DNA of 64,000 nucleotides from a virus (taxonomy: Duplodnaviria; Heunggongvirae; Uroviricota; Caudoviricetes), in IMG/VR virus record IMGVR_UViG_3300021475_000005; one strand, given 5' to 3'. Positions 3,344-39,496 of the stretch are shown here, one piece after another. The translations under genes and the position numbers were made by a program. A model generated the notes under the pieces. The model was not told the origin of the DNA and did no database searches. It was given only the letters and a program-made list of their open reading frames with translations. Positions within the stretch are counted from its first letter, which is position 1. Each line of letters opens with the position of its first letter.

Positions 3344-4555
3344 ATGCAGACGATCCAAGGCCACCACGGGGGCCTTATCAAGGCATGGGTAGACGGAGTT
3401 GAGTTTGAGGAATCGGCTCAACGACAGGTCCATAATCTCGCCGCGATGCCGTTCATTCATAAGCATGTCGCGATCATGCCGGATTGCCATGCGGGAATCG
3501 GTGCAACGGTTGGATCGGTTTTTGCGACCCGTGGCGCTGTCATACCCGCAGCCGTGGGCGTCGATATTGGCTGCGGTATGGCCGCGATTAGAACGTCCCT
3601 GACGGCGTCCGATCTGCCGGATAGCCTCCACGACCTTCGTTGCAATATCGAGCGTACGGTGCCGCATGGCGGTCTTGGACCATCCTCGGGATGGGGCGGC
3701 AAACCGGGTGGTATTCCGAACTCCGTCAAAAGTCGATGGAATACGCTGGAGCCGAGATTCAAGAATCTCTGTGAACGCTATCCGGCATTGGAAAATGAGA
3801 ATCACCTCATTCATCTCGGCTCGCTGGGCGGCGGAAATCATTTCGTCGAGGTCTGCCTCGATACCGAACAACGTGTTTGGGTCATGTTGCATTCTGGCTC
3901 TCGCGGCATCGGGAACAAGATCGGACGCATGTTTACCGAGAGCGCCCGTGAAATGCTTGGTAAACGAATTGGACATCATTATGTCCCCGACAAAGACCTC
4001 GCATGGTTCGAGGAAGGTGAGCAGCAGTTCGACGATTATATCGAGGCCATGCTTTGGGCGCAGGATTTTGCGGCTGAAAATCGTAAAGCCATGATGGAGC
4101 GCACGCTCAATGTGATGCGTACGCATTTCCCCGGCTTCACGACTGATAAGCACGCCGTCAACTGCCATCACAATTTTGCGCAGAAAGAACGTCATTTCGA
4201 TGCCGATGTATGGGTCGCGCGTAAGGGTGCGGTCGAAGCAACGCAGGGAAAGCTTGGCATCATCCCCGGCTCGATGGGCGCGAAATCATTCATTGTTCGC
4301 GGGCTTGGGAATCCCGAATCCTTTAACTCGTGCAGCCACGGAGCCGGTCGCCGTATGTCGCGGGGCGCTGCAAAGAAAACCTTTTCCCTCCAAGATCACG
4401 AGATTGCGACCGCTGGCGTCGAATGCCGCAAGGATGCAGGCGTGATCGACGAGACTCCGGGATGTTACAAAGACATTGATGCCGTGATGGCAGCACAATC
4501 CGATCTCGTTGAGATCGTCGCCACCCTTAAACAAGTTCTCTGCGTCAAAGGCTAA
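3344..4555 (+). CDS. rtcB: RNA ligase RtcB (3'-phosphate/5'-OH RNA-splicing ligase)
   Basis: 403-aa ORF containing the RtcB metal- and GTP-binding motifs: MPDCHAGIGATVGS, GGGNHFVE, HNFAQKE and NSCSHGAGR. Confidence 0.85.
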   Translation: MQTIQGHHGGLIKAWVDGVEFEESAQRQVHNLAAMPFIHKHVAIMPDCHAGIGATVGSVFATRGAVIPAAVGVDIGCGMAAIRTSLTASDLPDSLHDLRCNIERTVPHGGLGPSSGWGGKPGGIPNSVKSRWNTLEPRFKNLCERYPALENENHLIHLGSLGGGNHFVEVCLDTEQRVWVMLHSGSRGIGNKIGRMFTESAREMLGKRIGHHYVPDKDLAWFEEGEQQFDDYIEAMLWAQDFAAENRKAMMERTLNVMRTHFPGFTTDKHAVNCHHNFAQKERHFDADVWVARKGAVEATQGKLGIIPGSMGAKSFIVRGLGNPESFNSCSHGAGRRMSRGAAKKTFSLQDHEIATAGVECRKDAGVIDETPGCYKDIDAVMAAQSDLVEIVATLKQVLCVKG

Positions 4556-5624: not shown

Positions 5625-5959
5625 TGGCATCACCAAAAGATTTTGCCGGGTCGAACAAGCTTCTAAAAGGACCGCCCGGATACGAAGATAGAATAGGCGA
5701 TCTACCGGTTTACAACAGTGGCGTCGAGTCTATTTCACGTTGGGCGCTCAGCCGTGAAGAACTACAAGCCGTTGTTGAGTCTGGCGATGTTTGGGTTTCA
5801 GTGGCAGCCGGATCGAGTCAACCACCGATGAAGGTTTCGGGTTTTCCTTTGATGGAACTGCGGGACGAAAACGGAAAGACCTCAAAATATGATCCGGACG
5901 CCGGACTTATTCCGCGTCCAGTCCGCATCATCGAATTCAGAGAAGAATATTCCCTCTAA
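5624..5959 (+). CDS. hypothetical protein
   Basis: 111-aa ORF from the in-frame ATG at 5624. Confidence 0.4.
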   Translation: MASPKDFAGSNKLLKGPPGYEDRIGDLPVYNSGVESISRWALSREELQAVVESGDVWVSVAAGSSQPPMKVSGFPLMELRDENGKTSKYDPDAGLIPRPVRIIEFREEYSL

Positions 5960-6456
5960 TGCGCACAGTCCCTATCTCGGTTCTTCAAGAACGCTATATC
6001 TACAATCCAGAGACCGGGAAGATTTCTGCACGCATCAAACTCGGCAAGAAAGATATCGGCGAAGAGGTCGGTACGATCAACCACGACGGCTACATCGTTT
6101 TGAAAGTCAGTTATGATGGACGCCGCACTCAGATCGCAGGGCATGTTCTAGCATGGACATTGTTCTATGGAGAGTATCCTGAATTCGATGTCGATCATCG
6201 TGATACAGTTCGAACCAATAATCGAATCGACAATCTGAGAAATGCAACGCGATCCCAAAATCTCGCCAATCGAAATCATGTTGGTGAACTGCCGCGCGGC
6301 GTCACGAGGACGAAGAATAAAAACCGTCCCTATCAAGCTCAAATACAGTGGGAAGGTAAGAAGCGCTATCTCGGCAGTTTTGCCGATCCCATGGATGCAC
6401 ACGCAGCATATGTGAAAGAAGCAACTCTCGTTTTTGCGGATTTCGTCAGGATATAA
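5959..6456 (+). CDS. HNH homing endonuclease with AP2 DNA-binding domain
   Basis: An HNH motif (DHRDTVRTNNRIDNLRNATRSQN) is followed by an AP2-like segment (YQAQIQWEGKKRYLGSFADPMDAHAAY). Confidence 0.7.
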   Translation: MRTVPISVLQERYIYNPETGKISARIKLGKKDIGEEVGTINHDGYIVLKVSYDGRRTQIAGHVLAWTLFYGEYPEFDVDHRDTVRTNNRIDNLRNATRSQNLANRNHVGELPRGVTRTKNKNRPYQAQIQWEGKKRYLGSFADPMDAHAAYVKEATLVFADFVRI

Positions 6457-6462
6457 CAATCC

Positions 6463-6744
6463 ATGAAGAAAGCATACCGCGAGGCTTTGCTTCAAGTTGC
6501 GAAATTTAACATATTCGGCAATGCATTCCATTTAACCCAAAGACCAAAAACCATGGCAAAACTTGAAGTTATGGGATTGGTGGAAAAACGAAAGGTAAAA
6601 GTTCTTGGATATCCCTGTGAAACTTGGTTCGTCACAAAAGACGGAAAAGAAGCGCTCGCGCAAATCAAAGAAGAATACGGAGTCTCAGTCTACGGCAAGA
6701 ACCGCCCAAGGCTTAAACATCGACGCGGTCGAGGAAAAGTATAA
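6463..6744 (+). CDS. hypothetical protein
   Basis: 93-aa ORF. It overlaps the start region of the next ORF by 140 nt in a different frame. Confidence 0.35.
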   Translation: MKKAYREALLQVAKFNIFGNAFHLTQRPKTMAKLEVMGLVEKRKVKVLGYPCETWFVTKDGKEALAQIKEEYGVSVYGKNRPRLKHRRGRGKV

Positions 6745-7639
6745 CGCAAAATATGTCGGGCAGTACGATCTCCCGTCAAGTCGTGGACCGTATCTGATCT
6801 TCTATGTGGAAAACCCCGATACGTCGAAGGGACACGACAATTATTTTGCTCTACGCCGTGGGATGGGCCTGACATCGAAAGGCGCATTCGGCTGGACCGA
6901 TTCTGTCACCATATTCAATGGTAAAGGAATCAGAGATTCAGAATGGGCAGCCATTTTGCTTGAAGACGACACCTTTCTGGTTTCACGCTGGCACCACGAT
7001 TATGTAACAGGGCCGCGCGGAGAAATGTTGGATGGCGGCTCCGACTACACAAGATACAATCTTGAATTTCCACCAACGCATAAAATGAAGATCATCGACG
7101 GAAAGGAAGTCTTTACACCCGTGCCACCAAGAGAACCGAAAGTCAAAAACGACGAAGACTTTGAGAACCTCGATCTTACACCAGAACAAACCAAGCTTGA
7201 AGACTGGTACGGATATGGCCTGAATGGCGTCTCTGGTATTATGTACGATGTCGGCGAATTCCATCTTGCGTGCGATCAACCGGTTCGCTACAAACCGGCG
7301 CTTCCTACCGCCGATGAAGCGGCACTTCGTTTGCGGCTGATCACCGAAGAGTTCGAAGAAACCAAGCGTGCAATCGAAACCGGTGACATCGTCGAAGTCG
7401 CGGATGGGCTTGCAGACCTCATCTATGTGATTGCAGGTACCGCATTGGTTTACGGTCTGCCATTGGATGAAGTATGGAGCGAAGTCCACGATTCTAATAT
7501 GGCAAAAGTCGATCCTGAGACCGGAAAAGTTTTGAAACGAGCAGACGGCAAGATTTTAAAAAGACCCGGTTGGACACCTCCAGATATCAAAACCGTTCTT
7601 GGATTATTTAGCGATGACACAGCATCCGACGCAGCTTAA
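6605..7639 (+). CDS. MazG-like nucleotide pyrophosphohydrolase domain protein (start uncertain)
   Basis: The C-terminal about 140 aa carry an EExxE / EVADGLADLIYV pattern typical of the MazG/HisE all-alpha NTP pyrophosphatase family. The first 50 codons overlap the previous ORF, so the true start may be internal (for example the GTG at 6806). Confidence 0.5.
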   Translation: MDIPVKLGSSQKTEKKRSRKSKKNTESQSTARTAQGLNIDAVEEKYNAKYVGQYDLPSSRGPYLIFYVENPDTSKGHDNYFALRRGMGLTSKGAFGWTDSVTIFNGKGIRDSEWAAILLEDDTFLVSRWHHDYVTGPRGEMLDGGSDYTRYNLEFPPTHKMKIIDGKEVFTPVPPREPKVKNDEDFENLDLTPEQTKLEDWYGYGLNGVSGIMYDVGEFHLACDQPVRYKPALPTADEAALRLRLITEEFEETKRAIETGDIVEVADGLADLIYVIAGTALVYGLPLDEVWSEVHDSNMAKVDPETGKVLKRADGKILKRPGWTPPDIKTVLGLFSDDTASDAA

Positions 7640-8153
7640 CGATATAGGGCGTGCGATTCAATTTGCACTCGACCGCCACAAGGGACAGCTTTATGCCGGG
7701 CTACCCTATGTCTATCATCTTTCTCGTGTTGCATTTGCCTGCGGCGATTTCGGTTATATTGATCCAGTGCATCAGTCAGCTTGTTGGCTGCACGATGTTG
7801 TCGAAGATACCGAAACATCTATCGAGACTGTGATCAAAGAGTTCGGTATCGAGGTCGGGCGTCATGTTTGGGCGTGTACCGGCATTGGAGAGAATCGAAA
7901 AGAACGCAATCTCGACATCTCAAGAAAACTTCTCGCTTTTCCGAAGGGATGTATCGTAAAGGCTTCGGATCGTATCGCAAATCTCGAAGCATGCATTCTC
8001 GATCCCGGGACAGGGCAACCCAATCGCGAACTCGCTGGAATGTATCTCAAGGAGCGCACAGATTTCATCGATTTGATGCGTGGCTGCATTCCTGATCCAA
8101 TGTTAACGCGCCTTAACCACGCTTTCGACGAATTGACTCATATCGTGCCTTAG
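7614..8153 (+). CDS. HD-domain hydrolase, RelA/SpoT-type (small alarmone hydrolase-like)
   Basis: Contains HKGQ, YVYHLSRVA and WLHDVVEDTETSIETVIKEFG. This matches the SpoT/Mesh1 HD signature (H...HD..ED). Confidence 0.65.
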   Translation: MTQHPTQLNDIGRAIQFALDRHKGQLYAGLPYVYHLSRVAFACGDFGYIDPVHQSACWLHDVVEDTETSIETVIKEFGIEVGRHVWACTGIGENRKERNLDISRKLLAFPKGCIVKASDRIANLEACILDPGTGQPNRELAGMYLKERTDFIDLMRGCIPDPMLTRLNHAFDELTHIVP

Positions 8154-8703: not shown

Positions 8704-8756
8704 ATCGTCACGGGGCAACTTTATGCACGGCAATCCATCAGACATCGTGATGGCGC

Positions 8757-9200
8757 ATGCTTTCCAGCAGACGCCACGTACATGGTGGCAAAAACTGCGC
8801 GCCTACTTCGGTTATGCGTCGTAGCCCCTATCGCGGCGGGATGCCGTACCGCCCAATGCTGCACTGGCCCTATGAGCGTCGTCCCGGCGACTTTTTGAGG
8901 CATTGGGAAGACCTACACTTTTACGGATTCACGCGGGTCCGTCCTTTCTACTGCATCTTCACTGATCCTGTCAGCGGGATGCTCAATCTCCAGCATAAGA
9001 ATCTCCTCAACAAGATACACCGTGCACGGCGGCTTGGTCGGAAGATGTTCAAGAACTCGCGGCCCTTTTATAAAAGCCGTGCGCGCATCCCGGATGAAAT
9101 TGAAGCCATTCGCTACAGAGCAGCACTCAATCGCTCGAAAGATGCACGTCGCGACAGGATCGAACTCGTCGAATTGGAATTGATTCCCTTCTGGGATTGA
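8757..9200 (+). CDS. hypothetical basic protein (weak call)
   Basis: Arg-rich 147-aa ORF. Competing minus-strand ORFs exist at 8721-9203, so the coding status of this 550-bp stretch is unclear. Confidence 0.2.
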   Translation: MLSSRRHVHGGKNCAPTSVMRRSPYRGGMPYRPMLHWPYERRPGDFLRHWEDLHFYGFTRVRPFYCIFTDPVSGMLNLQHKNLLNKIHRARRLGRKMFKNSRPFYKSRARIPDEIEAIRYRAALNRSKDARRDRIELVELELIPFWD

Positions 9201-9253
9201 CACCTTAGCCGCGACAGCCTATGTCCAATTCCTCGACAGGTTGAGGGATTCGG

Positions 9254-10303
9254 ATGCCAAAGCCATACAAGCTAGCCGTCCTTATTGGACGCTTTCAGCC
9301 TTTCCATCGCGGGCACGAGCAGGTCATGCTTGATGCATTATCCAATGCTGACCGGCTTCTTGTGATGGTTGGATCGTCTAACCTTTCGCGCACTACGCGT
9401 AATCCGTTCTCCTATGAAGAACGTGAGAGTATGATCATGCAAGCCATGTGTGATAAAGGCGTCGAAGGGCAAGTCGAAATCATTCCTCTTTCAGACAATC
9501 CGTATGAACTTCAAAGCTGGATAACATCCGTTCAAAACCACATAAAATCGTTGTTCCCTTTTGGCAACGATAAAGATGTCGCAATCACCGGCCATGAACG
9601 CGACCAGTCGAGTTTCTATTTGAAGCAGTTTCCGCAATGGGGATTTATTCAGCCTAAAATTCATTCGTTGCATATCAATGCAACGGAAATCCGCGAAGTC
9701 TATTTTGGCAGCGAAGGATGGTTCGATATGCTCGCCAAGAACTGGCTGCCAAAATCTTCGCTCGAATTTCTAATCGAATTCACTCGCGGACATCATTTCA
9801 AAGATATTTGTGCCGAGAAGACATTCGAAGTCGAATATCGTAAGAGATGGGGTAAAGGTCCATTCCAGACTGTCGATCCTGTTGTGATTCAGTCCGGGCA
9901 CCTCCTAACTGTGATCAGAAAGGATGCCCCGGGCAAAGGAATGCTTGCCTTGCCGGGTGGTCACGTAGAATACGGTGAGACCTGTGACGCTGCTGTGATC
10001 CGCGAACTCTTCGAAGAAACCCGCATTCATTTTCATGTCAAAAATAAAGACCTTCGTGTCCAACGAATTTGGCAAGGCTTTCGTGGGCGTCGCCGGTTCG
10101 ACGATCCGGCGCGGTCGTGCAGGGCGCATGTCATCACAGAAGCATTCCTCTTCAAGCTTCCGGATTATGACGAATTTCCATCCGTCCTTGGGGCTGATGA
10201 TGCCGAGATCGCGATGTGGACGCCACTCAGCGAGCTACGGTCACACAACATGTTCGAGGATCATTTCTGGATAGTTCAGAAGATGATTTCGACGTATCTA
10301 TGA
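9254..10303 (+). CDS. natV: bifunctional nicotinamide mononucleotide adenylyltransferase / Nudix ADP-ribose pyrophosphatase (NatV-like)
   Basis: The N-terminus has the GRFQPFHRGH nucleotidyltransferase motif of NadM-type NMNAT. The C-terminus has a Nudix box (GGHVEYGETCDAAVIRELFEETRI). Confidence 0.8.
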   Translation: MPKPYKLAVLIGRFQPFHRGHEQVMLDALSNADRLLVMVGSSNLSRTTRNPFSYEERESMIMQAMCDKGVEGQVEIIPLSDNPYELQSWITSVQNHIKSLFPFGNDKDVAITGHERDQSSFYLKQFPQWGFIQPKIHSLHINATEIREVYFGSEGWFDMLAKNWLPKSSLEFLIEFTRGHHFKDICAEKTFEVEYRKRWGKGPFQTVDPVVIQSGHLLTVIRKDAPGKGMLALPGGHVEYGETCDAAVIRELFEETRIHFHVKNKDLRVQRIWQGFRGRRRFDDPARSCRAHVITEAFLFKLPDYDEFPSVLGADDAEIAMWTPLSELRSHNMFEDHFWIVQKMISTYL

Positions 10304-10313
10304 AGGAAGTTTT

Positions 10314-11738
10314 ATGAGCCTGCCCACCTATCTTAAGCCACAACCGTACAATTCGATCATCGACGCGGATAGTTATAAAGTGCCTCATTGGATGTTCTAT
10401 CGTGAGGGCATCAAAAGCGTCTACAGCTTTATCGAGTCGCGTGGCGGCGAGCATGACACGATCATGATGGCAGGTCTTCAACCTCTTCTTTACGAAAAAA
10501 TTGCTCAACCCGTGCAAGATTGGGAGATCGAGGAGGCAGGAGAATTCTTCGCGAAGCATTTTGGCTTTCCCTCTTATTTCAACAAGAATATGTGGGATGA
10601 GATCGTCAATAAATGGGATAGAAAGCTTCCTCTCGAAATCCGTGCACTGCCTGAAGGTCTCCTCGTTCCCAAGCATACACCGATGGTTACCGTACAGAAC
10701 CATGGCGGGAAGGTTCTTGCGCCATTAACGAGCTACAAAGAGACCATGCTGATGCGGAATGTTTGGCCCGCATGCTCTATCGCGACTCGCGTCTTTCGTA
10801 TGAAGCAGCGTCTCAAGCCGTTTTACGACGAAACAAGCGATAACCCGATTTCGCCTTTTGCAGTTCTTGACTTCTCATCGCGCGGAGTTTTCGGCGACGA
10901 TCATTCCAAGATTGCAGGCGCAGTATTTTGCTTCATGTTTCAAGGTTCCGATAACATGCTCGGAATCCGTCATGCAAATTATTACTATTTCCACGAAATG
11001 TCGGCATTTTCTGTGGCGGCGACCGAACACAGTATTGCAAGCGGATGGGTGCACGACGACGACGGCTACATCGACAACTGTCTCGAAAAAGCGCTGCCTA
11101 ATTCCATCCTTTCGATGGTCGGTGACACTTGGAATATCTTCGAGTTCGCCAAGAAGCTCTGCCGGGGGGATCGGCAAGCGATCATAGCAAACAAAAATCT
11201 CAGTATCGTCGGGCGTCCAGATTCCGGAGAACGCTATGACGTGTTGCCACAATTTCTTGCGACTTTGTATCAAGGTGTCGGCGCACGCAAAAATTCTAAG
11301 GGCTACGACGTATTGAACTTGAACATGAAAGCTCTCTGGGCCGATGGGATGAATGAGGACACCATTACAGAGCCAAATCAGATCGCGAAGGATATGAAAA
11401 TCGCAGCGGACTGTGTGTTGACAGGTGCTGGTGGTGGAATTGCTGCCGCAAAACTGGACCGCGATACCGACCGATGGGCTATGAAAGCTTCCACATATTT
11501 GATGGAAGACGGCTCACAGATGGAGATTTTCAAAGACCCAATCACCGATCCGGGTAAAAAATCCAAGCGTGGGAGATTTACTGTTCGTCCAGATGGGTAT
11601 GGACACACGCTAGTCGGACGCAGATTTGGTGATACCGAATTCGCCGATGATCTCCTCGGTATCCGTTACCTAAACGGCGACGTTCTCAACGCAGCGATTT
11701 TGGAGGACATTCGCAGGCTTGTGGACTCTCAACTATGA
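10314..11738 (+). CDS. nadV: nicotinamide phosphoribosyltransferase (Nampt/NadV)
   Basis: 474-aa ORF. It contains DSYKVPHW, LEIRALPEGLLVPKHTPMVTVQN, NSKGYDVL and FKDPITDPGKKSKRGRFTV, which parallel conserved Nampt blocks. Confidence 0.85.
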   Translation: MSLPTYLKPQPYNSIIDADSYKVPHWMFYREGIKSVYSFIESRGGEHDTIMMAGLQPLLYEKIAQPVQDWEIEEAGEFFAKHFGFPSYFNKNMWDEIVNKWDRKLPLEIRALPEGLLVPKHTPMVTVQNHGGKVLAPLTSYKETMLMRNVWPACSIATRVFRMKQRLKPFYDETSDNPISPFAVLDFSSRGVFGDDHSKIAGAVFCFMFQGSDNMLGIRHANYYYFHEMSAFSVAATEHSIASGWVHDDDGYIDNCLEKALPNSILSMVGDTWNIFEFAKKLCRGDRQAIIANKNLSIVGRPDSGERYDVLPQFLATLYQGVGARKNSKGYDVLNLNMKALWADGMNEDTITEPNQIAKDMKIAADCVLTGAGGGIAAAKLDRDTDRWAMKASTYLMEDGSQMEIFKDPITDPGKKSKRGRFTVRPDGYGHTLVGRRFGDTEFADDLLGIRYLNGDVLNAAILEDIRRLVDSQL

Positions 11739-12214
11739 GCGCCATTTCCCATGACGAACTCAGTCAGATCGAACGACGCATAACCGAGACTGGTCTTCTC
11801 TTGACTCCGGAAGAGGCTCAGAAATTGATCGGAACGACTCGGCGGCTGATGTCGGCTGAGTTCTGGAACAAATTTGTCTATCCTGAAGGCGCACTTGCGC
11901 AAGACGTTCAGAACGAACTCAATGATTATAAGTTTTTGCTGGAGCAGGTCTCTCTTGTCTACTGCCATGTAACAGGTGGTCTGCTTTCGAAGACAAACTA
12001 TTTTGCTTCGGAAGTGATTTCCGCGATGGATCGCTTTGTTGAGCACATGATCGACGAGGCCGTACTTGAGGCCCGAGAGGAGTGGGAAGAAGAACACATA
12101 GCCACCATGGATCGCTTTGTTGAGCACATGATCGACGAGGCCGTACTTGAGGCCCGAGAGGAGTGGGAAGAAGAACACATAGCCACCATGGAAAAGCTGA
12201 CTCTAGATGACTAA
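11735..12214 (+). CDS. hypothetical protein carrying an in-frame duplicated 27-aa segment
   Basis: ORF of 159 aa. The segment MDRFVEHMIDEAVLEAREEWEEEHIAT occurs twice in tandem. Confidence 0.5.
   Translation: MSAISHDELSQIERRITETGLLLTPEEAQKLIGTTRRLMSAEFWNKFVYPEGALAQDVQNELNDYKFLLEQVSLVYCHVTGGLLSKTNYFASEVISAMDRFVEHMIDEAVLEAREEWEEEHIATMDRFVEHMIDEAVLEAREEWEEEHIATMEKLTLDD
12026..12187 (+). repeat. perfect 81-bp direct tandem duplication (2 copies) inside a CDS
   Basis: 12026-12106 is identical to 12107-12187. The next 5 nt (atgga) also match the repeat start. Confidence 0.9.
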
Positions 12215-12449: not shown

Positions 12450-13553
12450 ATGTCGATAATCAAACCGCCAGACTTGTTAGGTCAGCTTTCAATAGCGGAT
12501 ATGGATAAACTAATGAAAGAGTCCTATATCGGCGGTAAGTCAATTTCGGAACAGATTTTCGAAAGAAACTATCTCAATCAAGTCAATTTTGTTATGGCTC
12601 CCAATCAGAAAAAAATGTGCGAAGCCGTTCTGGCTAGTCGTGAATTTTTTCAAGGATCGAGTCTACCACACATTATGCCGTGGATGGCTCATCGACCTAT
12701 TTTTAGAGAATTCCTTTGGGGTCCGAATGGAGAATGGACAGGGCTGCTTCGTACAGACGATTTCAAAGTTTTCGATCAAATGGACTATGGGGAATCTTAT
12801 GAGATGGTTATTTCTAACACAAGAAACAGTTATGGAAGTAATTTAGCACTACCGTTTAAAGGGCGTGCTGCATACGAAAATCGCTGGATGAGGTGGGATG
12901 AAAGGATTTCTCACGGATTTTTAAATGCGACAGGATTGTCTATAGCAATGTACGACCCAAAAGTCGCAGTCTTTTTCGACAACTATCAATCGATGATGGA
13001 ATATACGCGATATGTAGGTGCGCGATCTCCTGCGGTTCCGATTATTCTAGAGATGGCGTCTTTTATTCAATATCTCGATCTGAACGCTTCCATTATCGCA
13101 CAATGGAGCGATGCCATGATGAGGCCGAAATATAAATACTGCTATGGTGCGTTGCGCGATGGCAAAGATAGGTTCAGTCCTCTTGGTGTTATGCTGGACT
13201 TCATGGATTGCGAGTGGGTCTGGGATCACGACGATGCCGAATGGAATGCTGTCGATTGTGATGAGAATAATGTTATCTCTAGTTCTCGGGCTCGTTCTCT
13301 CTTTAAAATTCCTAGCGGAATTTCAAATAACTCGGTTGAATTCGGGATTCAGTTATTGACGGATGTTTCCGATAAGTTTTCCGATTTTGGACGTTTCTGC
13401 GAGTACCTAAAATTGGCTGACGAGATCGTAGGCGACCGTCAGCAGATAGTTCGGCGCGCATTTGATTCCAATCCGGATCAACATCGATACCGGATGGCGG
13501 ATCAGATAAGTCTCGTGCGTCCTGAAACGCTTTTCTGGAATTCAAAGGTATGA
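12450..13553 (+). CDS. hypothetical protein encoded by an AT-rich gene
   Basis: 367-aa ORF. GC content is visibly lower (about 40%) than the flanking genes (about 52%). I recognise no motifs. Confidence 0.5.
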   Translation: MSIIKPPDLLGQLSIADMDKLMKESYIGGKSISEQIFERNYLNQVNFVMAPNQKKMCEAVLASREFFQGSSLPHIMPWMAHRPIFREFLWGPNGEWTGLLRTDDFKVFDQMDYGESYEMVISNTRNSYGSNLALPFKGRAAYENRWMRWDERISHGFLNATGLSIAMYDPKVAVFFDNYQSMMEYTRYVGARSPAVPIILEMASFIQYLDLNASIIAQWSDAMMRPKYKYCYGALRDGKDRFSPLGVMLDFMDCEWVWDHDDAEWNAVDCDENNVISSSRARSLFKIPSGISNNSVEFGIQLLTDVSDKFSDFGRFCEYLKLADEIVGDRQQIVRRAFDSNPDQHRYRMADQISLVRPETLFWNSKV

Positions 13554-13996
13554 GCACCGTCCTCGTCTGCGGAGCTAGATTTGACGTTCGGATCGAGCAC
13601 ATCTATGCGGTCCTCGACGGCATTCAGCAGGTACTAAAATTCCCGCAGGAAACAATTTTTGTGCATGGTGGGGCGCGAGGCACAGATCGCTTTTCCGGCG
13701 CATGGGCACGCTGGCGAGGATTTCAGGAATCTGTATGCGCTATCGACACGGCGCTCGACGATAACGACAAAGGGGGCGCACCGAAACGCCGTAATATTCG
13801 GATGAAGGAAACCTTCCAGCCGGAATGGGCGATCTGCTTTCCGGGCGGTCCCGGAACAAGGCATATGATGGATATTTGCCTAAAGGACAGAAAAATGCAA
13901 GTTTTGGACGTGGAAATCGAAGGTACCAATTTTACGGTTTGGTGGCTGCGATTCGGTCTCCCAGTCATGGTTCTAACGCAAGGAATTCTCAAATGA
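13550..13996 (+). CDS. SLOG / DUF2493-family Rossmann-like protein
   Basis: Contains VLVCGARFDV, IFVHGGARGTDRFSGAWARWRG, APKRRNIRM and AICFPGGPGTRHM. This is the DUF2493 (YspA/SLOG) pattern. Confidence 0.55.
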   Translation: MSTVLVCGARFDVRIEHIYAVLDGIQQVLKFPQETIFVHGGARGTDRFSGAWARWRGFQESVCAIDTALDDNDKGGAPKRRNIRMKETFQPEWAICFPGGPGTRHMMDICLKDRKMQVLDVEIEGTNFTVWWLRFGLPVMVLTQGILK

Positions 13997-17764: not shown

Positions 17765-19003
17765 CTAACAGTCATGAATCTCGACAATATCAGTCCATTG
17801 GAGTTCCCGAATCAGGTCATCTGCACCGCCGATAAACTGCGGCATTTTGTCAAGAGCAAGACGGAATACGAGTGGAAAGGTTTCCCAGTCCTCCAACTCC
17901 GCTTTCATCTGCGCGCGCTTGTCCGGGTCCGCGACAAGTTCCGTCGTGAAGGTCATCTTCTTTTCGGTGAGAGCTTGGACGGCGCGGTCACAATGCGGGC
18001 AGCCGGGCATCGTATAAACCTTGTATTGCAGTTTCATGTCGATGAAGTCGAATGCATTGTTCCAACCTTCGATCTCGCCTTTTCCATATTCGGTTGAACG
18101 GCTCTCAAAGAAATTGGTATGAGTTGGCGCATTCATGATCCAATCCAACCATGGAAGCGGATTGTCTTTGACGCGGTAATTTGGCTTTAAGCCGAGTTGC
18201 AGCAACCGCCGATCCGCGATGTATCGAATATATTTTTTCGCTTCATCAGGCGTAATCCCATCGACCGGGCCGATAGAGAATGCCTGATCAATGAAGGCAT
18301 CTTCCAACTTGACCATCTGGCGGCAGGTTTCATAAATGCGCTGCTTGGTCTCATCGTTCCAGACGCGTGGATGTTCCTGTACCAATGTGTGGAAGAGCTT
18401 GATCATCGCTTCGACGTGAAGCGATTCATCTCTTAGAGACCACTCAACCAAACTCGACATTCCTTTCATCAGTCCGCGTTTCTGAAAACTCAAAAGGATA
18501 GCGAAGGATGAGAATAGCTGCATGCCTTCACCAAAGGCGCTGAAGATAGCAATATCGACAGCGAGATCGGCGATGCCTTTGCCCATGCTGTTCTCAAACA
18601 TGAATTCATGTTTGTTGCGCATGGCAGCATATTCCTGAAATGCTTTGTACTCAGACTCTGGAAGTCCAAGCGTATCGATCAGGGTTGAATAGGCATCGAT
18701 GTGATTGGCCTCCATGTCGATGAAGGCACCGAACATCATCCGAATCTCAGGATGCGGGAAGCGTGGGGCATACTTCTCGAAATAACCTTTGGCGATATCG
18801 ATGTCAGCCTGCGTGAAGAAACGGAATAACTGCGTGAGAAGAGATTTTTCGTTCTCTGTCAGTTTCTTGTTCCAGTCGTTGATATCCTCAGCCATCGGAG
18901 CCTCATGTGGTTCCCATGCCATCGAACGCGCTTTTTTATACGCCTCATAAGCCCATGGATAAGAAAACGGCTTAAAATAGTCGCGTGAATCTAAAATACC
19001 CAT
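17765..19003 (-). CDS. nrdB: ribonucleotide reductase class I small subunit NrdB fused to a C-terminal glutaredoxin domain
   Basis: The di-iron ligand motifs of R2 are present (EANHIDAY and RDESLHVEAM). The C-terminal about 80 aa carry the CPHC active site and an IGGADDL glutaredoxin motif. Confidence 0.8.
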   Translation of the reverse strand: MGILDSRDYFKPFSYPWAYEAYKKARSMAWEPHEAPMAEDINDWNKKLTENEKSLLTQLFRFFTQADIDIAKGYFEKYAPRFPHPEIRMMFGAFIDMEANHIDAYSTLIDTLGLPESEYKAFQEYAAMRNKHEFMFENSMGKGIADLAVDIAIFSAFGEGMQLFSSFAILLSFQKRGLMKGMSSLVEWSLRDESLHVEAMIKLFHTLVQEHPRVWNDETKQRIYETCRQMVKLEDAFIDQAFSIGPVDGITPDEAKKYIRYIADRRLLQLGLKPNYRVKDNPLPWLDWIMNAPTHTNFFESRSTEYGKGEIEGWNNAFDFIDMKLQYKVYTMPGCPHCDRAVQALTEKKMTFTTELVADPDKRAQMKAELEDWETFPLVFRLALDKMPQFIGGADDLIRELQWTDIVEIHDC

Positions 19004-19006
19004 GGC

Positions 19007-21706
19007 TTAACCTTGACACGCTAGACAGTCATCTGCCTGCTTACCGCTACCATCCTCGACAACAAAATTTTCCGCCATTGTCATGCGTTCAACTTTCTTA
19101 TTCGTATTCTCCGCACGTGACGGCGTCGTCGATCTCAGATAATAAAGAGACTTCACACCCATTTCCCACGCTTTGTAGTGTGCCTTAGTGATCTCTTTTG
19201 CGTCGGCATTATGCTCGAAGAACAAATTCAGCGATTGTGCCTGACAGATATATGGCGCGCGGTCTGCTGCCAACTGAACAAGAGCCATCTGATCCAATTC
19301 GGTCGCCGTCTTGAAGATTACCTTTATATCGTCAGGAATGTCGAGATGCTGAACCGAACCTTCATTGGCGACGATACTCTGCCACGTTGCGTCATTGTCC
19401 AGATCGAGCTTCTGAAGGGCTTTTGACAGATATGGGTTCTTTACCGGGAACGATCCTGACAATGTTTTGTGTAGGAAAGCATTAGCACGGTGAGGCTCGA
19501 TTGAGGGTGATGTTCCTCCGCACAGGATCGAAGAAGAAGCATTTGGGGCCACAGCGAGTTTATGCGCAAATCGTTCCCCTGTACCCTCCATATCCGGTGC
19601 TTCGCCGCGTTCTTCGCCGAGTTTCAGTGAGATGCGGTTTGCTTCGGCACGAAGATAAGTAAAGAGATCGAGGTTTAATAATCTGGCCTGTGGAGATTCA
19701 AGGGAAAATCCTTTTGCCTGCAAATAAGATTGAAAGCCGAGCACACCAAGGCCAACAGAGCGCTCCCGCATGGCACTATAAACTGCATTATGCAATTCTG
19801 GAGGCGCATCCGAGATGAAAGCGTTCAACGCGTTATCGAGCATGCGGAACAGGTCCTCAAGAAACTGAGGATCGTAACGCCATTCATCGAACTTTTCCGC
19901 ATTCACGCTCGACAAGCAGCAGACCGCAGTACGCATCTTGTCGAATTTATCCACACCGGTCGGAAGCGTGATCTCGGTGCAATTCCCGGTGATATAGCCA
20001 TTGAAAGTAAGGCGACCGGTTTTTGGCTCCGTTGCGCAATAGGTTTCGAGACGAAATGGAAGAGGTTGCACATCGCATACAACCGCATGGTGAATTGGGC
20101 TTGGATGAATTCCGTCTACAAGTGCGTCGAAATCTTCCTGTGTCAATGTCAGGGCGTTCATCGTATCTGTCAAACGAATCACCGGTGACAAACCAAGTTC
20201 CAGTGCGATCAGGCGAATTCCTCGAATCAAATCCACATCATTCGACCCAATGCAGAGCAATTCGGCATCGCTATCATCGAGACGCATTTTTGTGCCGGAG
20301 GCCATGATAATTCCACGAAGCCATTCGCGGCGTTCACTGACAGACCATGTAAGCGGTAAACGTCCCGCTGGAATATCCCGTGGTTCATATCGAATCATCA
20401 TTCCAGCTTCGTCCTGTTCCGAATTTACGGAGGCCGTCAGAAGCTGCTTTAATTCGGAGTCGGGAAGAGCGGCTGGAGCATAAACTGCCAAACGGTTACT
20501 GTCTTCGAAACCTGCAAATGTCGCCCACCCAGCCGTGAACGCAATTGCCATGGCATGATGGGGGTCTTCGTCAAGTTGGAATTTCTTCCATTCATTCGCA
20601 ATACCGGTGCGTGCTCCCCAAAGAGTGCTGCCATTTTCCAGTTCTCCGGCCTGCACAATGGTCCCATCGAAGAGATGAAATTTATGTTGCGGAGTGCAGT
20701 CAACATAATCGCCATCTTCAAACCAGACACGGACAAGCTCAGCTTCATCCGCTGTTTTGCGGATCGTGACTGGAACAAAGTCATCACCATTCCAGATATC
20801 GACTGTCTGATCGACAAGACCCTCGATAGGTAAATGGCCTATGCGAGTCAGCATTTGTGTATAAGGTGCAACGCAGAGATTCGATTGATGGACTTTTAGA
20901 CCAAGCTTTTTCTGCGGCTCTGGAAGAGAACGATTGATAGTGTCGATGAAGACCATATAAGGCTCGCCAGTCTGCATGCGAGTCTCGATAAGAAGCCGCC
21001 ATAAATCACGTGCACGCACAGTTTTGGTGACGGTCCCATCCTTTGGAGAGCGTAGATTGAAAGTGGTATTGTTTGTAACGGCTTCCATGAATTCGTCTGT
21101 GATGTTGACCGCGTTATGGAGATTGGTAGCCTTTCGGTTTTGATCGCCGCCAGTCGGTTTGCGCATCGTAATGAATTCTTCGATCTCTGGATGTGAGATA
21201 TCGAGATATGCCGCGTAACTTCCTCGACGAGTACCACCTTGTGAGACAGAAAGGATAATTCGGTCAACAGCGGCAACGAAGGGAATCATGCCGGTAGATT
21301 TGGAGCCTTTCGCAGTCTCCTTACCAGCTTCACGCAGAAATCCCCAATAGCCTCCCACGCCGCCTCCAACTGATGAGAGCCAGCCAGTTTCCGTCCAGTG
21401 ATCGAAAATACCTGATCGGCTGTCGGACACGGCACTCAAAAAGCACGAGATGGGAAGACCGCGTTCAGAACCACCGTTCGAAAGGATAGGTGTTGCATAC
21501 ATGAACCACAACTTCGAAACAGCTTCATAAAGCCGTTGTGCATGATCCTCGTCATCTGCATAGGCAGCCGACGCACGCGCGAATGCATGCTGTGGAGAAG
21601 TCTCTCCCGGCAGCATGTAGCGCTCGATTAGTGTCTGTTTAGTGAAGTCGTTTAGAAGGCTGTCGCGGGAGAGATCAATTTTAATAGATGAGGGACTAAC
21701 AGCCAT
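19007..21706 (-). CDS. nrdA: ribonucleotide reductase class I large subunit NrdA, interrupted by an intein in the catalytic SNLC|TEI site
   Basis: Motifs present: GLPISCFL, GGGVGGYWG, QGGTRRGSYAAYL, a C-terminal YY pair and CLACQG. The catalytic QSNL and CTEITLPT segments are separated by 298 aa. Confidence 0.85.
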   Translation of the reverse strand: MAVSPSSIKIDLSRDSLLNDFTKQTLIERYMLPGETSPQHAFARASAAYADDEDHAQRLYEAVSKLWFMYATPILSNGGSERGLPISCFLSAVSDSRSGIFDHWTETGWLSSVGGGVGGYWGFLREAGKETAKGSKSTGMIPFVAAVDRIILSVSQGGTRRGSYAAYLDISHPEIEEFITMRKPTGGDQNRKATNLHNAVNITDEFMEAVTNNTTFNLRSPKDGTVTKTVRARDLWRLLIETRMQTGEPYMVFIDTINRSLPEPQKKLGLKVHQSNLCVAPYTQMLTRIGHLPIEGLVDQTVDIWNGDDFVPVTIRKTADEAELVRVWFEDGDYVDCTPQHKFHLFDGTIVQAGELENGSTLWGARTGIANEWKKFQLDEDPHHAMAIAFTAGWATFAGFEDSNRLAVYAPAALPDSELKQLLTASVNSEQDEAGMMIRYEPRDIPAGRLPLTWSVSERREWLRGIIMASGTKMRLDDSDAELLCIGSNDVDLIRGIRLIALELGLSPVIRLTDTMNALTLTQEDFDALVDGIHPSPIHHAVVCDVQPLPFRLETYCATEPKTGRLTFNGYITGNCTEITLPTGVDKFDKMRTAVCCLSSVNAEKFDEWRYDPQFLEDLFRMLDNALNAFISDAPPELHNAVYSAMRERSVGLGVLGFQSYLQAKGFSLESPQARLLNLDLFTYLRAEANRISLKLGEERGEAPDMEGTGERFAHKLAVAPNASSSILCGGTSPSIEPHRANAFLHKTLSGSFPVKNPYLSKALQKLDLDNDATWQSIVANEGSVQHLDIPDDIKVIFKTATELDQMALVQLAADRAPYICQAQSLNLFFEHNADAKEITKAHYKAWEMGVKSLYYLRSTTPSRAENTNKKVERMTMAENFVVEDGSGKQADDCLACQG
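19982..20875 (-). mobile_element. intein (298 aa) within nrdA
   Basis: The insert starts with Cys (CVAPY...), contains a block-B-like TPQHKF, ends ...FNGYITGN and is followed by Cys+1. Removing it restores the conserved SNLCTEITLPT. Codon boundaries were checked on the reverse strand. Confidence 0.7.
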
Positions 21707-22512: not shown

Positions 22513-22795
22513 GCCCCATCGACAATAGGAGATTTATACTATTGACAGCATCCACTTCGTTCATTGGGCCGTTCTCCAAAAGAAAATCAACCCGTTTTTC
22601 AACAAGACCTTCTCGTTCTAGAAGAAGCCACGCCAAGCCGTACATCAAACCTAGGGATGCATGCTTTTTAATATCTGGTGTTCTCGGGATATTTACGGTG
22701 ATGTCTATATTGTCCTCGTTGTTGTCAAAAACCATCAATGTGAATTCAGGAACTACTACACCGTCACCAGATAACTCGTCTGGAGGAATACTCAT
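22493..22795 (-). CDS. hypothetical protein
   Basis: 100-aa ORF. Confidence 0.35.
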   Translation of the reverse strand: MSIPPDELSGDGVVVPEFTLMVFDNNEDNIDITVNIPRTPDIKKHASLGLMYGLAWLLLEREGLVEKRVDFLLENGPMNEVDAVNSINLLLSMGRDEIPS

Positions 22796-23706
22796 TCAGT
22801 CAATGCCTCGTTGTCGAACATCTTGCGGAACTGTTCCCACCCGGTGAAATTTCCGCATAGACCATCGGAATCACGCGGGATAGGTGACGCCTGATGTTCA
22901 AGCGGCGTCGCATGCATTGGCCCATTATCGGGCATGAGCTTTTTGAAACGTTCGATATCCTCAGCAAAATTAGACTTTGTGCCGTCGTGTTTGGAATAAG
23001 ATACACGGCAGCAGCGCGCCGCAGAGGCGATCAGCAACAATGCCTCCGGTCTGGAAACTTCAAACATGACCGTTTTAGAGAAGATTTTCCTGATGTCTGA
23101 TTTGAAATCGTCCGCATACTGAATAGCGAGAGTTCTATCTTCCGGCGTAATATAGGGAAGGTGCCACTCGCGTTCATCGAGAACCATCGGCTTGACACGC
23201 TTTCTTTCTTTCTTAATGGCGCGCGCCAATATTGCAATCTCATCCTGTGCCGCATCGTGGTCTCGTAGATGATCCCAGTTCGCCCAATTCGTCGTCGTCA
23301 CAAGAACATCGATGTAGCCGAACCATTCGAGGGGTCTGTTGGCATATTGCTTATGAACATTCAGCCCATCTTTGGCTGCGAGAGTCTTACAACCGTTTAT
23401 GACCGTATCAGCCATCTGTTTCCAGATGCGGGCCGCTTCAGCCTGATCGTCTGAACATAGATGTCCTCCGGGCTGCATCCCCGGTTTATTATATCTAAAA
23501 TCTGGGATGAAGATGTCCTCGTCACGTGCGAGAAGAGAAGTTGTAGGAATAGCGCGGCTTGAACTTGCATTACGCGAAAACATGCGATGTGTCATGAATT
23601 CGGCATGAATGATACGCGGGTAACGCAGTTGCATTGTGTCGATACGAACGCCGTCGAGACTCATAGACGATGCGATCATTTTTGCTGTGATATCTGGGCG
23701 TATCAT
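22792..23706 (-). CDS. thyX: FAD-dependent thymidylate synthase ThyX
   Basis: A ThyX signature (FMTHRMFSRNASSSRA) aligns with FRHRIASYNELSGRY of characterised ThyX. A later LRDHDAAQDEI aligns with LRADSHAQWEI. Confidence 0.7.
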   Translation of the reverse strand: MIRPDITAKMIASSMSLDGVRIDTMQLRYPRIIHAEFMTHRMFSRNASSSRAIPTTSLLARDEDIFIPDFRYNKPGMQPGGHLCSDDQAEAARIWKQMADTVINGCKTLAAKDGLNVHKQYANRPLEWFGYIDVLVTTTNWANWDHLRDHDAAQDEIAILARAIKKERKRVKPMVLDEREWHLPYITPEDRTLAIQYADDFKSDIRKIFSKTVMFEVSRPEALLLIASAARCCRVSYSKHDGTKSNFAEDIERFKKLMPDNGPMHATPLEHQASPIPRDSDGLCGNFTGWEQFRKMFDNEALTE

Positions 23707-24251: not shown

Positions 24252-24252
24252 G

Positions 24253-29618: not shown

Positions 29619-30125
29619 TCAAGACACTTGTTTGCGGAGATTTTTTATAGGAACAATGCCATTATGGATGAGAATTTCGGAACGAATATCCATCCAGAGA
29701 TTACCTAATGTGTTTTTCCCATTATGATCTTCTCCCCATCCCCAGAAATCATCACGCCAGCTATCTTCAATCAGCGCGCGCTCACCGGTTTCGAGAAGCT
29801 TTTTCAGAACGTAGGGATGCTGAGCAACCTTTTCATATAGGATATCTCTCATCACTCCCACTTTGATTTCGTCCCAGTCAGGACGATAGAGTGCTTTGTA
29901 CGCGTTGGCGACTTTGAAAGCATTGTGCGCCGATGTCGCGTAACGAATTTCGTCTTGGATCGTCGGAGACTCTGGAAACTTCTCCCAGTGGTATGCTGCT
30001 TCGGATGTGTCAAAGCGATATCCTTTCCATAGAAGTGCAAATGACGAGAAGTTCGATAGAGGGTAAAATTCCTGCTCGTAGAAAAGAACTTGCGTATCGG
30101 TGTCAAGCTTGTAGTTCACAGCCAT
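29619..30125 (-). CDS. NADAR (YbiA-like) domain protein, copy 1
   Basis: Contains FYEQEFYPLSNFS, FDTSEAAYHWEKF and GWGED..NGKNTLGNLWMDIR. This is the YbiA/NADAR pattern. Confidence 0.7.
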   Translation of the reverse strand: MAVNYKLDTDTQVLFYEQEFYPLSNFSSFALLWKGYRFDTSEAAYHWEKFPESPTIQDEIRYATSAHNAFKVANAYKALYRPDWDEIKVGVMRDILYEKVAQHPYVLKKLLETGERALIEDSWRDDFWGWGEDHNGKNTLGNLWMDIRSEILIHNGIVPIKNLRKQVS

Positions 30126-31087: not shown

Positions 31088-31098
31088 TTGGTTCCTTT

Positions 31099-39478: not shown

Positions 39479-39490
39479 TGTCGGTATAAG
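39462..39490 (+). promoter_or_regulatory. strong sigma70-like promoter feeding the RNA locus
   Basis: TTGACA (39462-39467), a 17-nt spacer, then TATAAG (39485-39490). It overlaps the stop codon of the HNH gene. Confidence 0.45.
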
Positions 39491-39496
39491 CGACAG

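Follow-up and report, generated by a model that had tools for sequence, protein, structure and literature searches.

Here, we report that two adjacent genes of an uncultivated phiCbK-like jumbo phage, natV and nadV, very probably constitute an NAD+ salvage operon of the NARP2 type, which would keep NAD+ high against NAD+-depleting defences. NARP2 is the NAD+ reconstitution pathway composed of a phage Nampt and a phage Nmnat (Osterman et al., bioRxiv 10.1101/2024.02.11.579819). The stretch of DNA that we analysed, hereafter the window, is 64 kb of a ~206 kb metagenomic contig from a jumbo phage that is phiCbK-like but distant, with 63% identity in DNA polymerase. As an example of a pathway already characterised and catalogued in phages, the natV–nadV pair is new but ordinary; it extends the carriers of NARP2 by one divergent, uncultivated jumbo phage of the phiCbK-like group, and contributes little beyond annotation.

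The natV and nadV genes and their products

Megablast of the phage collection with the 3 kb region as query gave no nucleotide match, and homologues had to be sought at the protein level. The initial annotation had described an NMNAT-Nudix gene and a Nampt gene lying next to each other in the same orientation; this was borne out, with the two ORFs occupying exactly the positions in Table 1 and separated by a 10-nt spacer, and profile searches (Pfam, NCBIfam, PHROGs) place both genes in the families claimed. When NatV and NadV of vibriophage KVP40 were used as queries against the window, each matched only the corresponding ORF.

Table 1. Positions of the genes, motifs and local signals discussed in the text
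Feature	Position	Strand	Basis
natV, 349 aa, ATG start	9254..10303	+	ORF, profile, PDB and KVP40 comparisons
nadV, 474 aa, ATG start	10314..11738	+	ORF, profile, PDB and KVP40 comparisons
NatV HxGH nucleotidyltransferase motif, H18-R-G-H21 inside GRFQPFHRGH	9305..9316	+	Alignment
NatV Nudix box, G236-x5-E242-x7-R250-E251-L-F-E254-E255-T-R-I	9959..10027	+	Alignment
Codon of NadV His239, equivalent to human NAMPT His247	11028..11030	+	MAFFT alignment, human NAMPT numbering
Shine-Dalgarno GAGGGA, 5 nt before natV ATG	9243..9248	+	Direct sequence reading
Shine-Dalgarno AAGGAAG for nadV, 4 nt before ATG, overlapping last base of natV stop	10303..10309	+	Direct sequence reading
Possible natV promoter, TTGACAC, 14 nt spacer, CCTATGTC; 29 nt upstream of natV start	9197..9225	+	Relaxed pattern, weak, post hoc
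YAcAr (YpsA-like SLOG) gene, 1.8 kb downstream of nadV	13550..13996	+	Pfam PF10686, 9.8e-9
NADAR-domain gene, single copy found in window	29619..30125	-	Pfam PF08719, 1.5e-26

NatV has a NadM-type NMN adenylyltransferase domain (~aa 7-185) followed by a Nudix hydrolase domain (~aa 205-345). It is matched by Pfam CTP_transf_like (7.7e-11) and NUDIX (5e-13), both above gathering scores, by NCBIfam PRK05379 models up to 3.8e-95 spanning aa 4-345, and by PHROGs at 2.4e-68, and it shares 36% identity with KVP40 NatV (1.2e-51). The best PDB matches are the NadM-Nudix enzymes of Francisella tularensis (2qjt, with 2r5w) and Synechocystis slr0787 (2qjo), which align with NatV collinearly over the full length at 5e-59 and have identical active-site motifs, including the context of HxGH. 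In an alignment with NatV of KVP40 and of a Brevundimonas phage, H18, G20, H21 and R147 are invariant, the last belonging to the intact second NMNAT motif (S/N)xTxxR, i.e., N-A-T-E-I-R147. The same alignment shows G236, E242, R250, E251, E254 and E255 of the Nudix box to be invariant; relative to the consensus that we applied (Gx5Ex7REUxEExGU), the Gly at the end is Arg in NatV and in the Synechocystis NadM-Nudix (EETRL), and Asn in the Francisella enzyme. By homology, NatV is securely assigned as a bifunctional NadM-type NMNAT and Nudix hydrolase, and full-length homology to 2qjo/2qjt makes ADP-ribose the most likely substrate of its Nudix domain.

NadV is made up of an N-terminal domain (aa 14-109) and a catalytic barrel (~aa 182-427). 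It is matched by Pfam NAMPT_N (4.7e-22) and NAPRTase (9.5e-17), again above gathering scores, by NCBIfam NF006629 over the full length (3.4e-106) and by PHROGs (1.1e-109), and is 33% identical to KVP40 NadV (1.3e-60). Xanthomonas Nampt (7yqo, 2.6e-75) and human NAMPT (~1e-55) are collinear with it over the full length at ~29-35% identity, with identical active-site motifs. These Nampt proteins and the bacterial NadM-Nudix enzymes above serve housekeeping salvage in cells, whereas natV–nadV is a phage-borne operon. Conserved in NadV, in human numbering, are D16, Y18, R40, F193, R196, D219, E246, H247, S275, R311, D313, D354, G383, G384, R392, K400, K415 and K423; in the numbering of NadV itself the conserved positions include Y21, F187, R190, D213, H239, R301, D303, D344, G373, G374, R383, K391, K407 and K415. 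In Nampt enzymes, Tyr18 and Phe193 stack against nicotinamide, Asp219 accounts for specificity, His247 is the phospho-histidine (the autophosphorylated residue of human NAMPT), and further residues are ligands of PRPP or phosphate. NadV is thus securely identified, from its homology, as a nicotinamide phosphoribosyltransferase (Nampt), and the predicted folds of both proteins are already settled by full-length homology to solved structures. None of the catalytic residues checked is substituted: HxGH and the Nudix glutamates, on which the initial annotation depended, are intact, and so are NATEIR and the Nampt residues.

Two other positions of NadV do differ from the human enzyme: His191 is replaced by Leu throughout the lineage, i.e., in the window and in phiCbK-like NadV alike, and Gly353 is replaced by Ala in NadV and its closest relative. 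KVP40 NadV differs from the window protein at both. Neither is known as a catalytic position. Please note also that both proteins score below the cut-offs of the NCBIfam equivalog models, NatV with 319.1 vs 397 bits for NF003786 (NadM-Nudix) and NadV with 355.7 vs 405 bits for NF006629 (Nampt), and are therefore not filed in those narrow equivalog groups. We counted these scores, the 33-36% identity to the KVP40 enzymes and the two NadV substitutions against the NARP2 reading.

Each gene is preceded by a Shine-Dalgarno sequence, and the spacing of that of nadV is consistent with translation of the two genes from one transcript; the stop codon of nadV in turn overlaps the ATG of the next ORF (ATGA at 11735-11738). 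Within the window, only the candidate promoter upstream of natV fits a relaxed version of the alphaproteobacterial sigma-70-like consensus; the pattern was relaxed after the sequence had been seen and is expected to match ~0.6 times by chance. Standard sigma-70 promoter and terminator scans were not enriched over shuffled sequences and gave no site for natV–nadV, terminator-like hairpins upstream of the pair have no folding advantage over shuffled sequence (z -0.33), and a search of Rfam yielded neither a riboswitch nor any other RNA close to the two genes.

Gene order in KVP40, in phiCbK-like relatives and in other phages

The experimentally characterised phage pair of this kind is that of KVP40, with KVP40.0264 as NadV and KVP40.0162 as NatV (Lee et al. 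2017, as cited in bioRxiv 10.1101/2024.02.11.579819). The two enzymes, their domain architectures and all of their catalytic motifs are common to KVP40 and the window. The initial annotation had also taken the adjacency of the genes to be the KVP40 architecture, which is wrong: natV and nadV are ~43 kb apart in KVP40 (its 140-190 kb stretch is without either gene) and 10 nt apart in the window phage. Adjacency is the arrangement of phiCbK-like phages and of several others. KVP40 further differs in carrying nadR and pnuC, whereas the 64 kb window has neither. Both phages have a SLOG/YAcAr gene no more than ~4 kb from natV: KVP40.0155, ~3.8 kb upstream of KVP40 natV, is homologous to the YAcAr gene near natV–nadV (32% identity, 8e-14).

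natV lies just upstream of nadV in all of the eight related loci examined, and the conserved block in these relatives comprises MazG, HD, natV, nadV, SLOG (YAcAr) and an ATP-dependent ligase, with the YAcAr gene between nadV and the ligase also in loci L010, L014 and L015. Gene order, strand, adjacency and flanks are the same in phiCbK-like phages of Caulobacter and Brevundimonas (Dolichocephalovirinae; vB_BpoS-Papperlapapp, CcrColossus, CcrRogue), and the host of the window phage is probably alphaproteobacterial. The cultured members have NadV 48-52% and NatV 34-43% identical to the window proteins. The best uncultivated relative, IMG/VR UViG_3300025924_000017, is closer (NadV 67%, NatV 48%) and has ~940 nt inserted between natV and nadV. 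A genome GC of ~50% is among the features by which the window phage differs from its phiCbK-like relatives. NatV occurs in 39 Caulobacter phage records, compared with 40 that have a related polymerase. The pair belongs to a vertically conserved core block beside nucleotide-metabolism genes in nearly all phiCbK-like phages. Such a pattern is seen more often with housekeeping auxiliary functions than with variable anti-defence genes, and we counted it against a counter-defence role. The vertically inherited core status of the pair in phiCbK-like phages bears on the question of NARP2 as anti-defence or as housekeeping NAD+ supply.

The order natV, one small ORF, nadV was found in three unrelated lineages. 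A tight operon of natV and then nadV is the common arrangement across several phage lineages, and the split layout of the model phage KVP40 is not the typical one. A conserved third component was considered and rejected; the small intervening ORFs of MD18, RSL1, fHe-Yen9-03 and the IMG/VR relative are homologous neither to each other nor to any part of the window. YAcAr and NADAR genes are absent near natV in MD18, RSL1 and fHe-Yen9-03, and their linkage to natV is therefore not general.

Pathway class and neighbouring genes

The phage pathways NARP1 (Adps and Namat), NARP2 and NARP3 (PnuC and NadR) share the purpose of restoring NAD+, and the Namat of NARP1 is homologous to NadV. NadV scores 250 bits against Xanthomonas Nampt, 202 against KVP40 and 186 against human, vs 83-144 bits against three Adps-linked Namats. 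In a neighbour-joining tree of only nine taxa it is placed with Nampt, and at human position 384 it has Gly as in Nampt, whereas the three sampled Namats all have Ser. Three Adps queries against the six-frame translation of the 64 kb window (of the ~206 kb contig) gave no match at E<0.3, and Pfam detected no Prs-family match in the window. Adps directly precedes Namat in the three NARP1 loci used for comparison; a Prs-like Adps adjoining the Nampt homologue defines NARP1, and the upstream neighbour of nadV is instead the NMNAT-Nudix gene. NARP3 is defined by a PnuC transporter and a NadR-type RNK-NMNAT. The KVP40 PnuC query had no match in the 64 kb window, and the KVP40 NadR query gave just a weak cross-match, on the NMNAT domain of NatV (E 0.0046), with no NadR gene detected in the 64 kb window of the ~206 kb contig. 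With NadV nearer to Nampt than to Namat, and Adps/Prs, NadR and PnuC all missing from the window, the pair is therefore NARP2-type: a Nampt-clade NadV and an Nmnat resembling KVP40 NatV are found in the same phage, and no Adps in the 64 kb window. Of the phages with this Nampt, 94% have an Nmnat as well (Osterman et al.).

The genes around natV–nadV encode MazG, HD, ligase, RNR, ThyX and dNMP kinase. The phage DNA ligase is ATP-dependent, and ligation is therefore not the NAD+ sink. Two NADAR genes had been reported in the window. Regular expressions for NADAR motifs found none, Pfam then detected the one in Table 1, and no paralogue was recovered by phmmer (the NADAR protein against the six-frame window matched only itself) or in a PHROGs scan of neighbours; the other gene of the NAD/ADPR network is SLOG/YAcAr. 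The ORF at 30133-30672 beside NADAR was tried as a second copy and rejected, since it shows no paralogy and has no NADAR match in Pfam or PHROGs.

Proposed role and competing readings

Judging from the homologues, NadV would convert nicotinamide and host-made PRPP to NMN, driven by ATP through the conserved His239, and the N-terminal NadM-type domain of NatV would join NMN and ATP into NAD+. The C-terminal Nudix domain would most likely cleave ADP-ribose to AMP and ribose-5-phosphate, which host Prs can in principle turn back into PRPP; both NADase products, nicotinamide and ADP-ribose, would then be recycled into NAD+. High NAD+ in infection would allow the phage to replicate despite the NAD+-depleting systems Thoeris, DSR, SIR2-HerA and SEFIR, and may incidentally supply its own NAD(P)H-dependent nucleotide enzymes. 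The module had been called complete, which calls for a qualification: PRPP would have to come from host Prs because there is no phage prs in the window. The counter-defence reading put forward in the initial annotation agrees with the published pathway, in which the KVP40 pair was found to synthesise NAD+ and to eliminate defence by Thoeris and DSR2 (Osterman et al.), and it is this KVP40 work that suggests counter-defence over general NAD+ supply as the physiological role here.

A housekeeping auxiliary module, providing NAD(P)+ for replication of a very large genome (RNR/glutaredoxin, ThyX and other redox steps) and not selected by NAD+-depleting immunity, is possible, though we consider it rather unlikely. 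Its position and order are conserved in all of the phiCbK-like relatives examined, with NatV nearly as frequent as the polymerase among Caulobacter phage records, and it lies amid nucleotide-metabolism genes, of which ThyX and RNR need reducing power. NARP2 increases NAD+ also when no defence system is present, and bacterial NARP1/2 homologues are mostly chromosomal, with non-defence roles suggested for them by the authors (Osterman et al.). The two roles are, however, not exclusive, the KVP40 pair did abolish two defences, and the fusion to an ADPR-recycling Nudix domain, together with the nearby SLOG and NADAR genes, fits conflict over NAD+ breakdown products. The same Nudix domain could be thought of as the selected activity, destroying ADPR-derived immune signals (e.g., of the Thoeris gcADPR type), toxic ADPR derivatives or RNA NAD caps, with NAD+ synthesis secondary; the intact catalytic residues of the Nudix box and the presence of SLOG and NADAR in the window are compatible with it. 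We regard this as improbable: in every case an intact NMNAT is fused to the Nudix domain and Nampt is linked with it, which argues for salvage, and among solved structures those nearest to it are NMNAT/ADPR pyrophosphatases that act in NAD metabolism.

That NadV is a NARP1-type Namat, joining nicotinamide to ADPR-pyrophosphate made by an Adps encoded elsewhere in the genome, draws on the homology of Namat and Nampt, in which every checked catalytic residue is common except position 384, on the weak use of ADPR-PP by KVP40 Nampt and on the coverage of the Adps search, 64 of ~206 kb. With an NMNAT as partner gene, no Adps/Prs homologue in the window where the NARP1 loci have Adps immediately upstream, and higher scores against and grouping with Nampt together with its Gly384, it is very improbable; no phage is known to have both NARP1 and NARP2 (for this and the ADPR-PP result, Osterman et al.). 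Decay of natV and nadV into inactive remnants is barely credible. The scores below the equivalog cut-offs and the two substituted positions of NadV might be read in that way, but both ORFs align collinearly over the full length with no frameshift and no internal stop, none of the catalytic residues is lost, the lineage that shares the substitutions keeps the pair in synteny, and the composition of the two genes is that of the genome (GC 0.48-0.49 vs 0.50).

As an extension of the NARP2 reading, natV–nadV and the conserved downstream SLOG (YAcAr) gene, which has its homologue near natV in the unrelated KVP40 too, might act as one larger unit in the phiCbK-like lineage. In this unit SLOG would sense or process an ADPR-derived product of host NADases and couple salvage to immune activation, and the His191 to Leu and, in the window phage, Gly353 to Ala changes of NadV would alter its substrate or inhibitor sensitivity compared with characterised Nampt enzymes; we think this improbable and offer it as speculation.

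Families and active sites of NatV and NadV

Profile searches (Pfam, NCBIfam) place both ORFs in the families that the initial annotation had proposed, i.e., a NadM-type NMN adenylyltransferase joined to a Nudix domain (NatV) and a nicotinamide phosphoribosyltransferase, Nampt (NadV). In NatV, Pfam detects two domains above the gathering score, one cytidylyltransferase-like at aa 10-71 (7.7e-11) and one NUDIX at aa 211-335 (5e-13); NCBIfam models named bifunctional NMN adenylyltransferase/Nudix hydrolase align end to end (best 3.8e-95), phrog_395 matches at 2.4e-68, and the NadM-Nudix structures from Francisella (2qjt, 5e-59) and Synechocystis (2qjo, 2.6e-58) match aa 3-346. NadV carries the Pfam domains NAMPT_N (4.7e-22) and NAPRTase (9.5e-17), is covered by NF006629 over aa 13-470 (NCBIfam, 3.4e-106), and matches phrog_448, 'nicotinamide phosphoribosyl transferase' (1.1e-109), as well as the solved Nampt of Xanthomonas (7yqo, 2.6e-75) and human NAMPT (~1e-55). 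Both scores fall below the NCBIfam equivalog cut-offs (NatV, 319 < 397 bits; NadV, 356 < 405 bits); the two proteins belong to these families but have diverged, and are not close orthologues of the sequences that seeded the models.

The catalytic residues of NatV, on which the annotation depended, are intact in the alignment: the HxGH motif reads GRFQPFH18RGH21, the second NMNAT motif NATEIR147, and the Nudix box, with its glutamates, G236-x5-E242-x7-R250-E251-L-F-E254-E255-T-R-I. All these positions are invariant among the NatV proteins of KVP40, a Brevundimonas phage and the window, and the motifs agree with the solved bacterial enzymes; the final consensus Gly of the Nudix box is Arg, as it is in the Synechocystis enzyme. 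For NadV, human NAMPT residues 8-478 were rebuilt from the printed alignment as the numbering reference, and we aligned the window protein with human and Xanthomonas Nampt, KVP40 and D479 NadV, Brevundimonas phage NadV, three NARP1 Namats and seven further relatives. NadV keeps the equivalents of human D16, Y18, R40, F193, R196, D219, E246, H247, S275, R311, D313 and D354, and also of G383, G384, R392, K400, K415 and K423, whose functional roles we take to be those assigned in the NAMPT literature. Human His191, present in the human, Xanthomonas, KVP40-like and Namat proteins, is replaced by Leu in nine of nine phiCbK-like sequences (NadV L185), and human Gly353 by Ala (NadV A343) only in the window and its closest IMG/VR relative. 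As they are common to a lineage that keeps the genes, these substitutions are traits of the lineage and not decay.

Operon-like layout and conserved gene order

The adjacent, co-oriented pair lies exactly where the initial annotation had placed it, with a spacer of 10 nt. The ATG of the next ORF overlaps the nadV stop (ATGA, 11735-11738), and natV, nadV and this ORF are laid out like a polycistronic unit. With GC contents of 0.48 and 0.49 against 0.50 for the window, natV and nadV show no sign of having been acquired recently. No family match was found for the product of the third ORF, which contains an 81-bp perfect tandem duplication of 2.1 copies (27 aa repeated); in the otherwise identical ENA contig the unit occurs once (132 aa vs 159 aa in the window), so that either the assemblies differ or the population is polymorphic here.

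Coordinates of features in the window
Feature	Position	Strand	Remark
RtcB RNA ligase	3344-4555	+	3.5e-121
HNH_3 homing-endonuclease-like genes	5959-6456; 38951-39478	+
MazG-like pyrophosphohydrolase	6605-7639	+	N-terminal extension, phrog_12504
HD_4 phosphohydrolase	7599-8153	+	RelA/SpoT-type HD
147-aa ORF	8757-9200	+
natV Shine-Dalgarno GAGGGA	9243-9248	+	read from sequence
natV	9254-10303	+	349 aa ORF
nadV Shine-Dalgarno AAGGAAG	10303-10309	+	overlaps last base of natV stop codon
nadV	10314-11738	+	474 aa ORF
NadV L185 codon	10866-10868	+
NadV A343 codon	11340-11342	+
ORF after nadV	11735-12214	+
81-bp tandem repeat	12026-12192
YAcAr / YpsA-like SLOG	13550-13996	+	9.8e-9; 1.8 kb downstream of nadV
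RNR small subunit	17765-19003	-	C-terminal glutaredoxin fusion
RNR large subunit	19007-21706		after small subunit
ThyX-like gene	22792-23706
dNMP kinase	23706-24308
NADAR	29619-30125	-	Pfam 1.5e-26
'Cysteine dioxygenase' PHROG match	30701-31117	-	5.2e-21; two genes from NADAR
369-aa protein	37059-38168	+
tRNA, CUA anticodon	38390-38463	+	ARAGORN label Pyl
Permuted two-piece alphaproteobacterial-type tmRNA	39458-39931	+	Rfam RF04321 86.5 bits, RF01849 53.7 bits
Tyrosine recombinase	55163-55870	+	Phage_integrase 6.7e-16

In each of the eight related loci natV shortly precedes nadV in the same orientation, within a syntenic block of MazG, HD, a small conserved ORF, natV, nadV, a 367-aa ORF, YAcAr/SLOG and an ATP-dependent ligase. 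In three unrelated lineages (Phaeobacter phage MD18, Ralstonia phage RSL1, Yersinia phage fHe-Yen9-03) one small non-homologous ORF stands between natV and nadV. In the locus of the closest relative (L010, 4063-5000) ~940 nt are inserted there, holding small ORFs without a homologue in the window, which shows that the junction tolerates insertions. The annotation had described the adjacency as the KVP40 architecture, which is wrong in detail, since KVP40 natV (KVP40.0162, 94.5 kb) and nadV (KVP40.0264, 138.2 kb) are 43 kb apart, and in one KVP40-like phage natV is likewise not beside nadV. The enzyme pair is the same; the tight operon is that of other lineages.

Upstream of natV, the overlapping MazG-like and HD_4 genes, syntenic in relatives, could form an alarmone- or nucleotide-degrading pair. 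The 147-aa ORF called between them and natV has a higher GC (0.54), contains terminator-like hairpins, and lacks both a Pfam or PHROG match and a homologue in the related loci; the ~550 nt around it (8704-9253) may have a regulatory role and code for no protein.

Pathway assignment and role

Descriptions exist of three pathways by which phages rebuild NAD+: NARP1 (Adps + Namat), NARP2 (Nampt + Nmnat) and NARP3 (PnuC + NadR). Nampt and Namat are homologous and therefore must be told apart by test. The three NARP1 loci compared (Staphylococcus phage P4W, Escherichia phage mio, Bacillus phage Smudge) have a Prs-like Adps directly upstream of Namat, whereas the window has an NMNAT partner instead. 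The Adps proteins of these three loci, KVP40 NadR and KVP40 PnuC found nothing in the six-frame window except a weak NadR cross-match to the NatV NMNAT domain, and Pfam scans of ~60 window ORFs gave no Prs family member. NadV scores higher against Nampt (Xanthomonas 250, KVP40 202, human 186 bits) than against Namats (83-144), and a small neighbour-joining tree places it with the Nampts. Human position 384 is Gly in NadV and every Nampt sampled and Ser in three of three Namats, a very small sample, and may possibly discriminate the two. The experimentally characterised KVP40 NatV and NadV match only these two ORFs (1.2e-51 and 1.3e-60). Given the partner gene, the absent Adps, NadR and PnuC, the scores and tree, Gly384 and the KVP40 matches, natV-nadV is, at the level of sequence, NARP2 on every count in the 64 of ~206 kb of genome searched. 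The original call is correct, and the pair is an ordinary example of a known, experimentally characterised phage pathway catalogued in AntiDefenseFinder.

What we show directly is which genes these are, that their active sites are intact, that they are arranged like an operon and that their linkage is conserved. Judging from homologues, NadV would convert nicotinamide and PRPP to NMN, the NMNAT domain of NatV would form NAD+ from NMN and ATP, and its Nudix domain would cleave ADP-ribose to AMP and ribose-5-phosphate; the return of ribose-5-phosphate to PRPP would fall to host Prs, because the window is without a phage prs. The NARP2 pair of KVP40 is reported to make NAD+ and to overcome defence by type I Thoeris and by DSR2 completely, at a cost due to its consumption of PRPP (Osterman et al. 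bioRxiv 10.1101/2024.02.11.579819). The same work reports that it raises NAD+ in infection whether a defence system is present or absent. Together with the genomic setting, this defence-independent increase leaves room for a general, housekeeping NAD+ supply: natV-nadV, which nearly every phiCbK-like phage carries, belongs to a core block that is conserved by vertical descent and includes nucleotide-metabolism genes (MazG, HD, ATP-dependent ligase, RNR with glutaredoxin fusion, ThyX, dNMP kinase). Such supply is compatible with counter-defence, and we consider it a rather unlikely primary selective reason for the pair. NadV is encoded by every NadM-encoding phage and in a third of jumbo phages (Iyer et al. 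2022).

The suggested investment in NAD/ADP-ribose metabolism is partly borne out, by NatV-Nudix and NadV together with a NADAR and a SLOG gene, one of each; of the two NADAR genes claimed, a single one was found, with no paralogue detectable in the window. The YAcAr/SLOG gene is syntenic in phiCbK-like relatives, and its homologue KVP40.0155 (32% identity, 8e-14; 318-689 of the KVP40 stretch L009) lies ~3.8 kb upstream of KVP40 natV; none occurs near natV in MD18, RSL1 or fHe-Yen9-03. Phage SLOG domains are predicted to sense or act on ADPR derivatives. The 369-aa protein, with sub-threshold matches only (including Macro_2, E 0.0047, 16.7 bits vs cut-off 27), might add another gene with a link to ADPR or be noise.

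Lineage and further genes

NadV occurs verbatim on the ENA metagenome contig ERZ27253578 k141_4465948 (206,491 bp); contig and window agree at 100% identity along 21.4 kb, barring the one repeat copy. Megablast with the 3 kb region gave no nucleotide match in the phage collection. The closest cultured relatives are phiCbK-like jumbo phages of Caulobacter and Brevundimonas (Dolichocephalovirinae; NadV 48-52%, NatV 34-43%, DNA polymerase 63% identity), and IMG/VR UViG_3300025924_000017 (225 kb) is nearer (NadV 67%, NatV 48%). The permuted alpha-type tmRNA, whose tag peptide is AEAFRVVQAATGSTTQLDIFA (ARAGORN), hints at an alphaproteobacterial host.

The CUA-anticodon tRNA resembles an amber suppressor, and its neighbourhood also has tRNA-Cys and tRNA-Met (36840-36913 and 40675-40752). 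RtcB is encoded upstream in the same gene string as natV-nadV, and no RNA-repair partner was recognisable among its scanned neighbours. Two homing-endonuclease-like genes are present, and this jumbo phage, of a lineage known as lytic, has a short tyrosine-recombinase gene.
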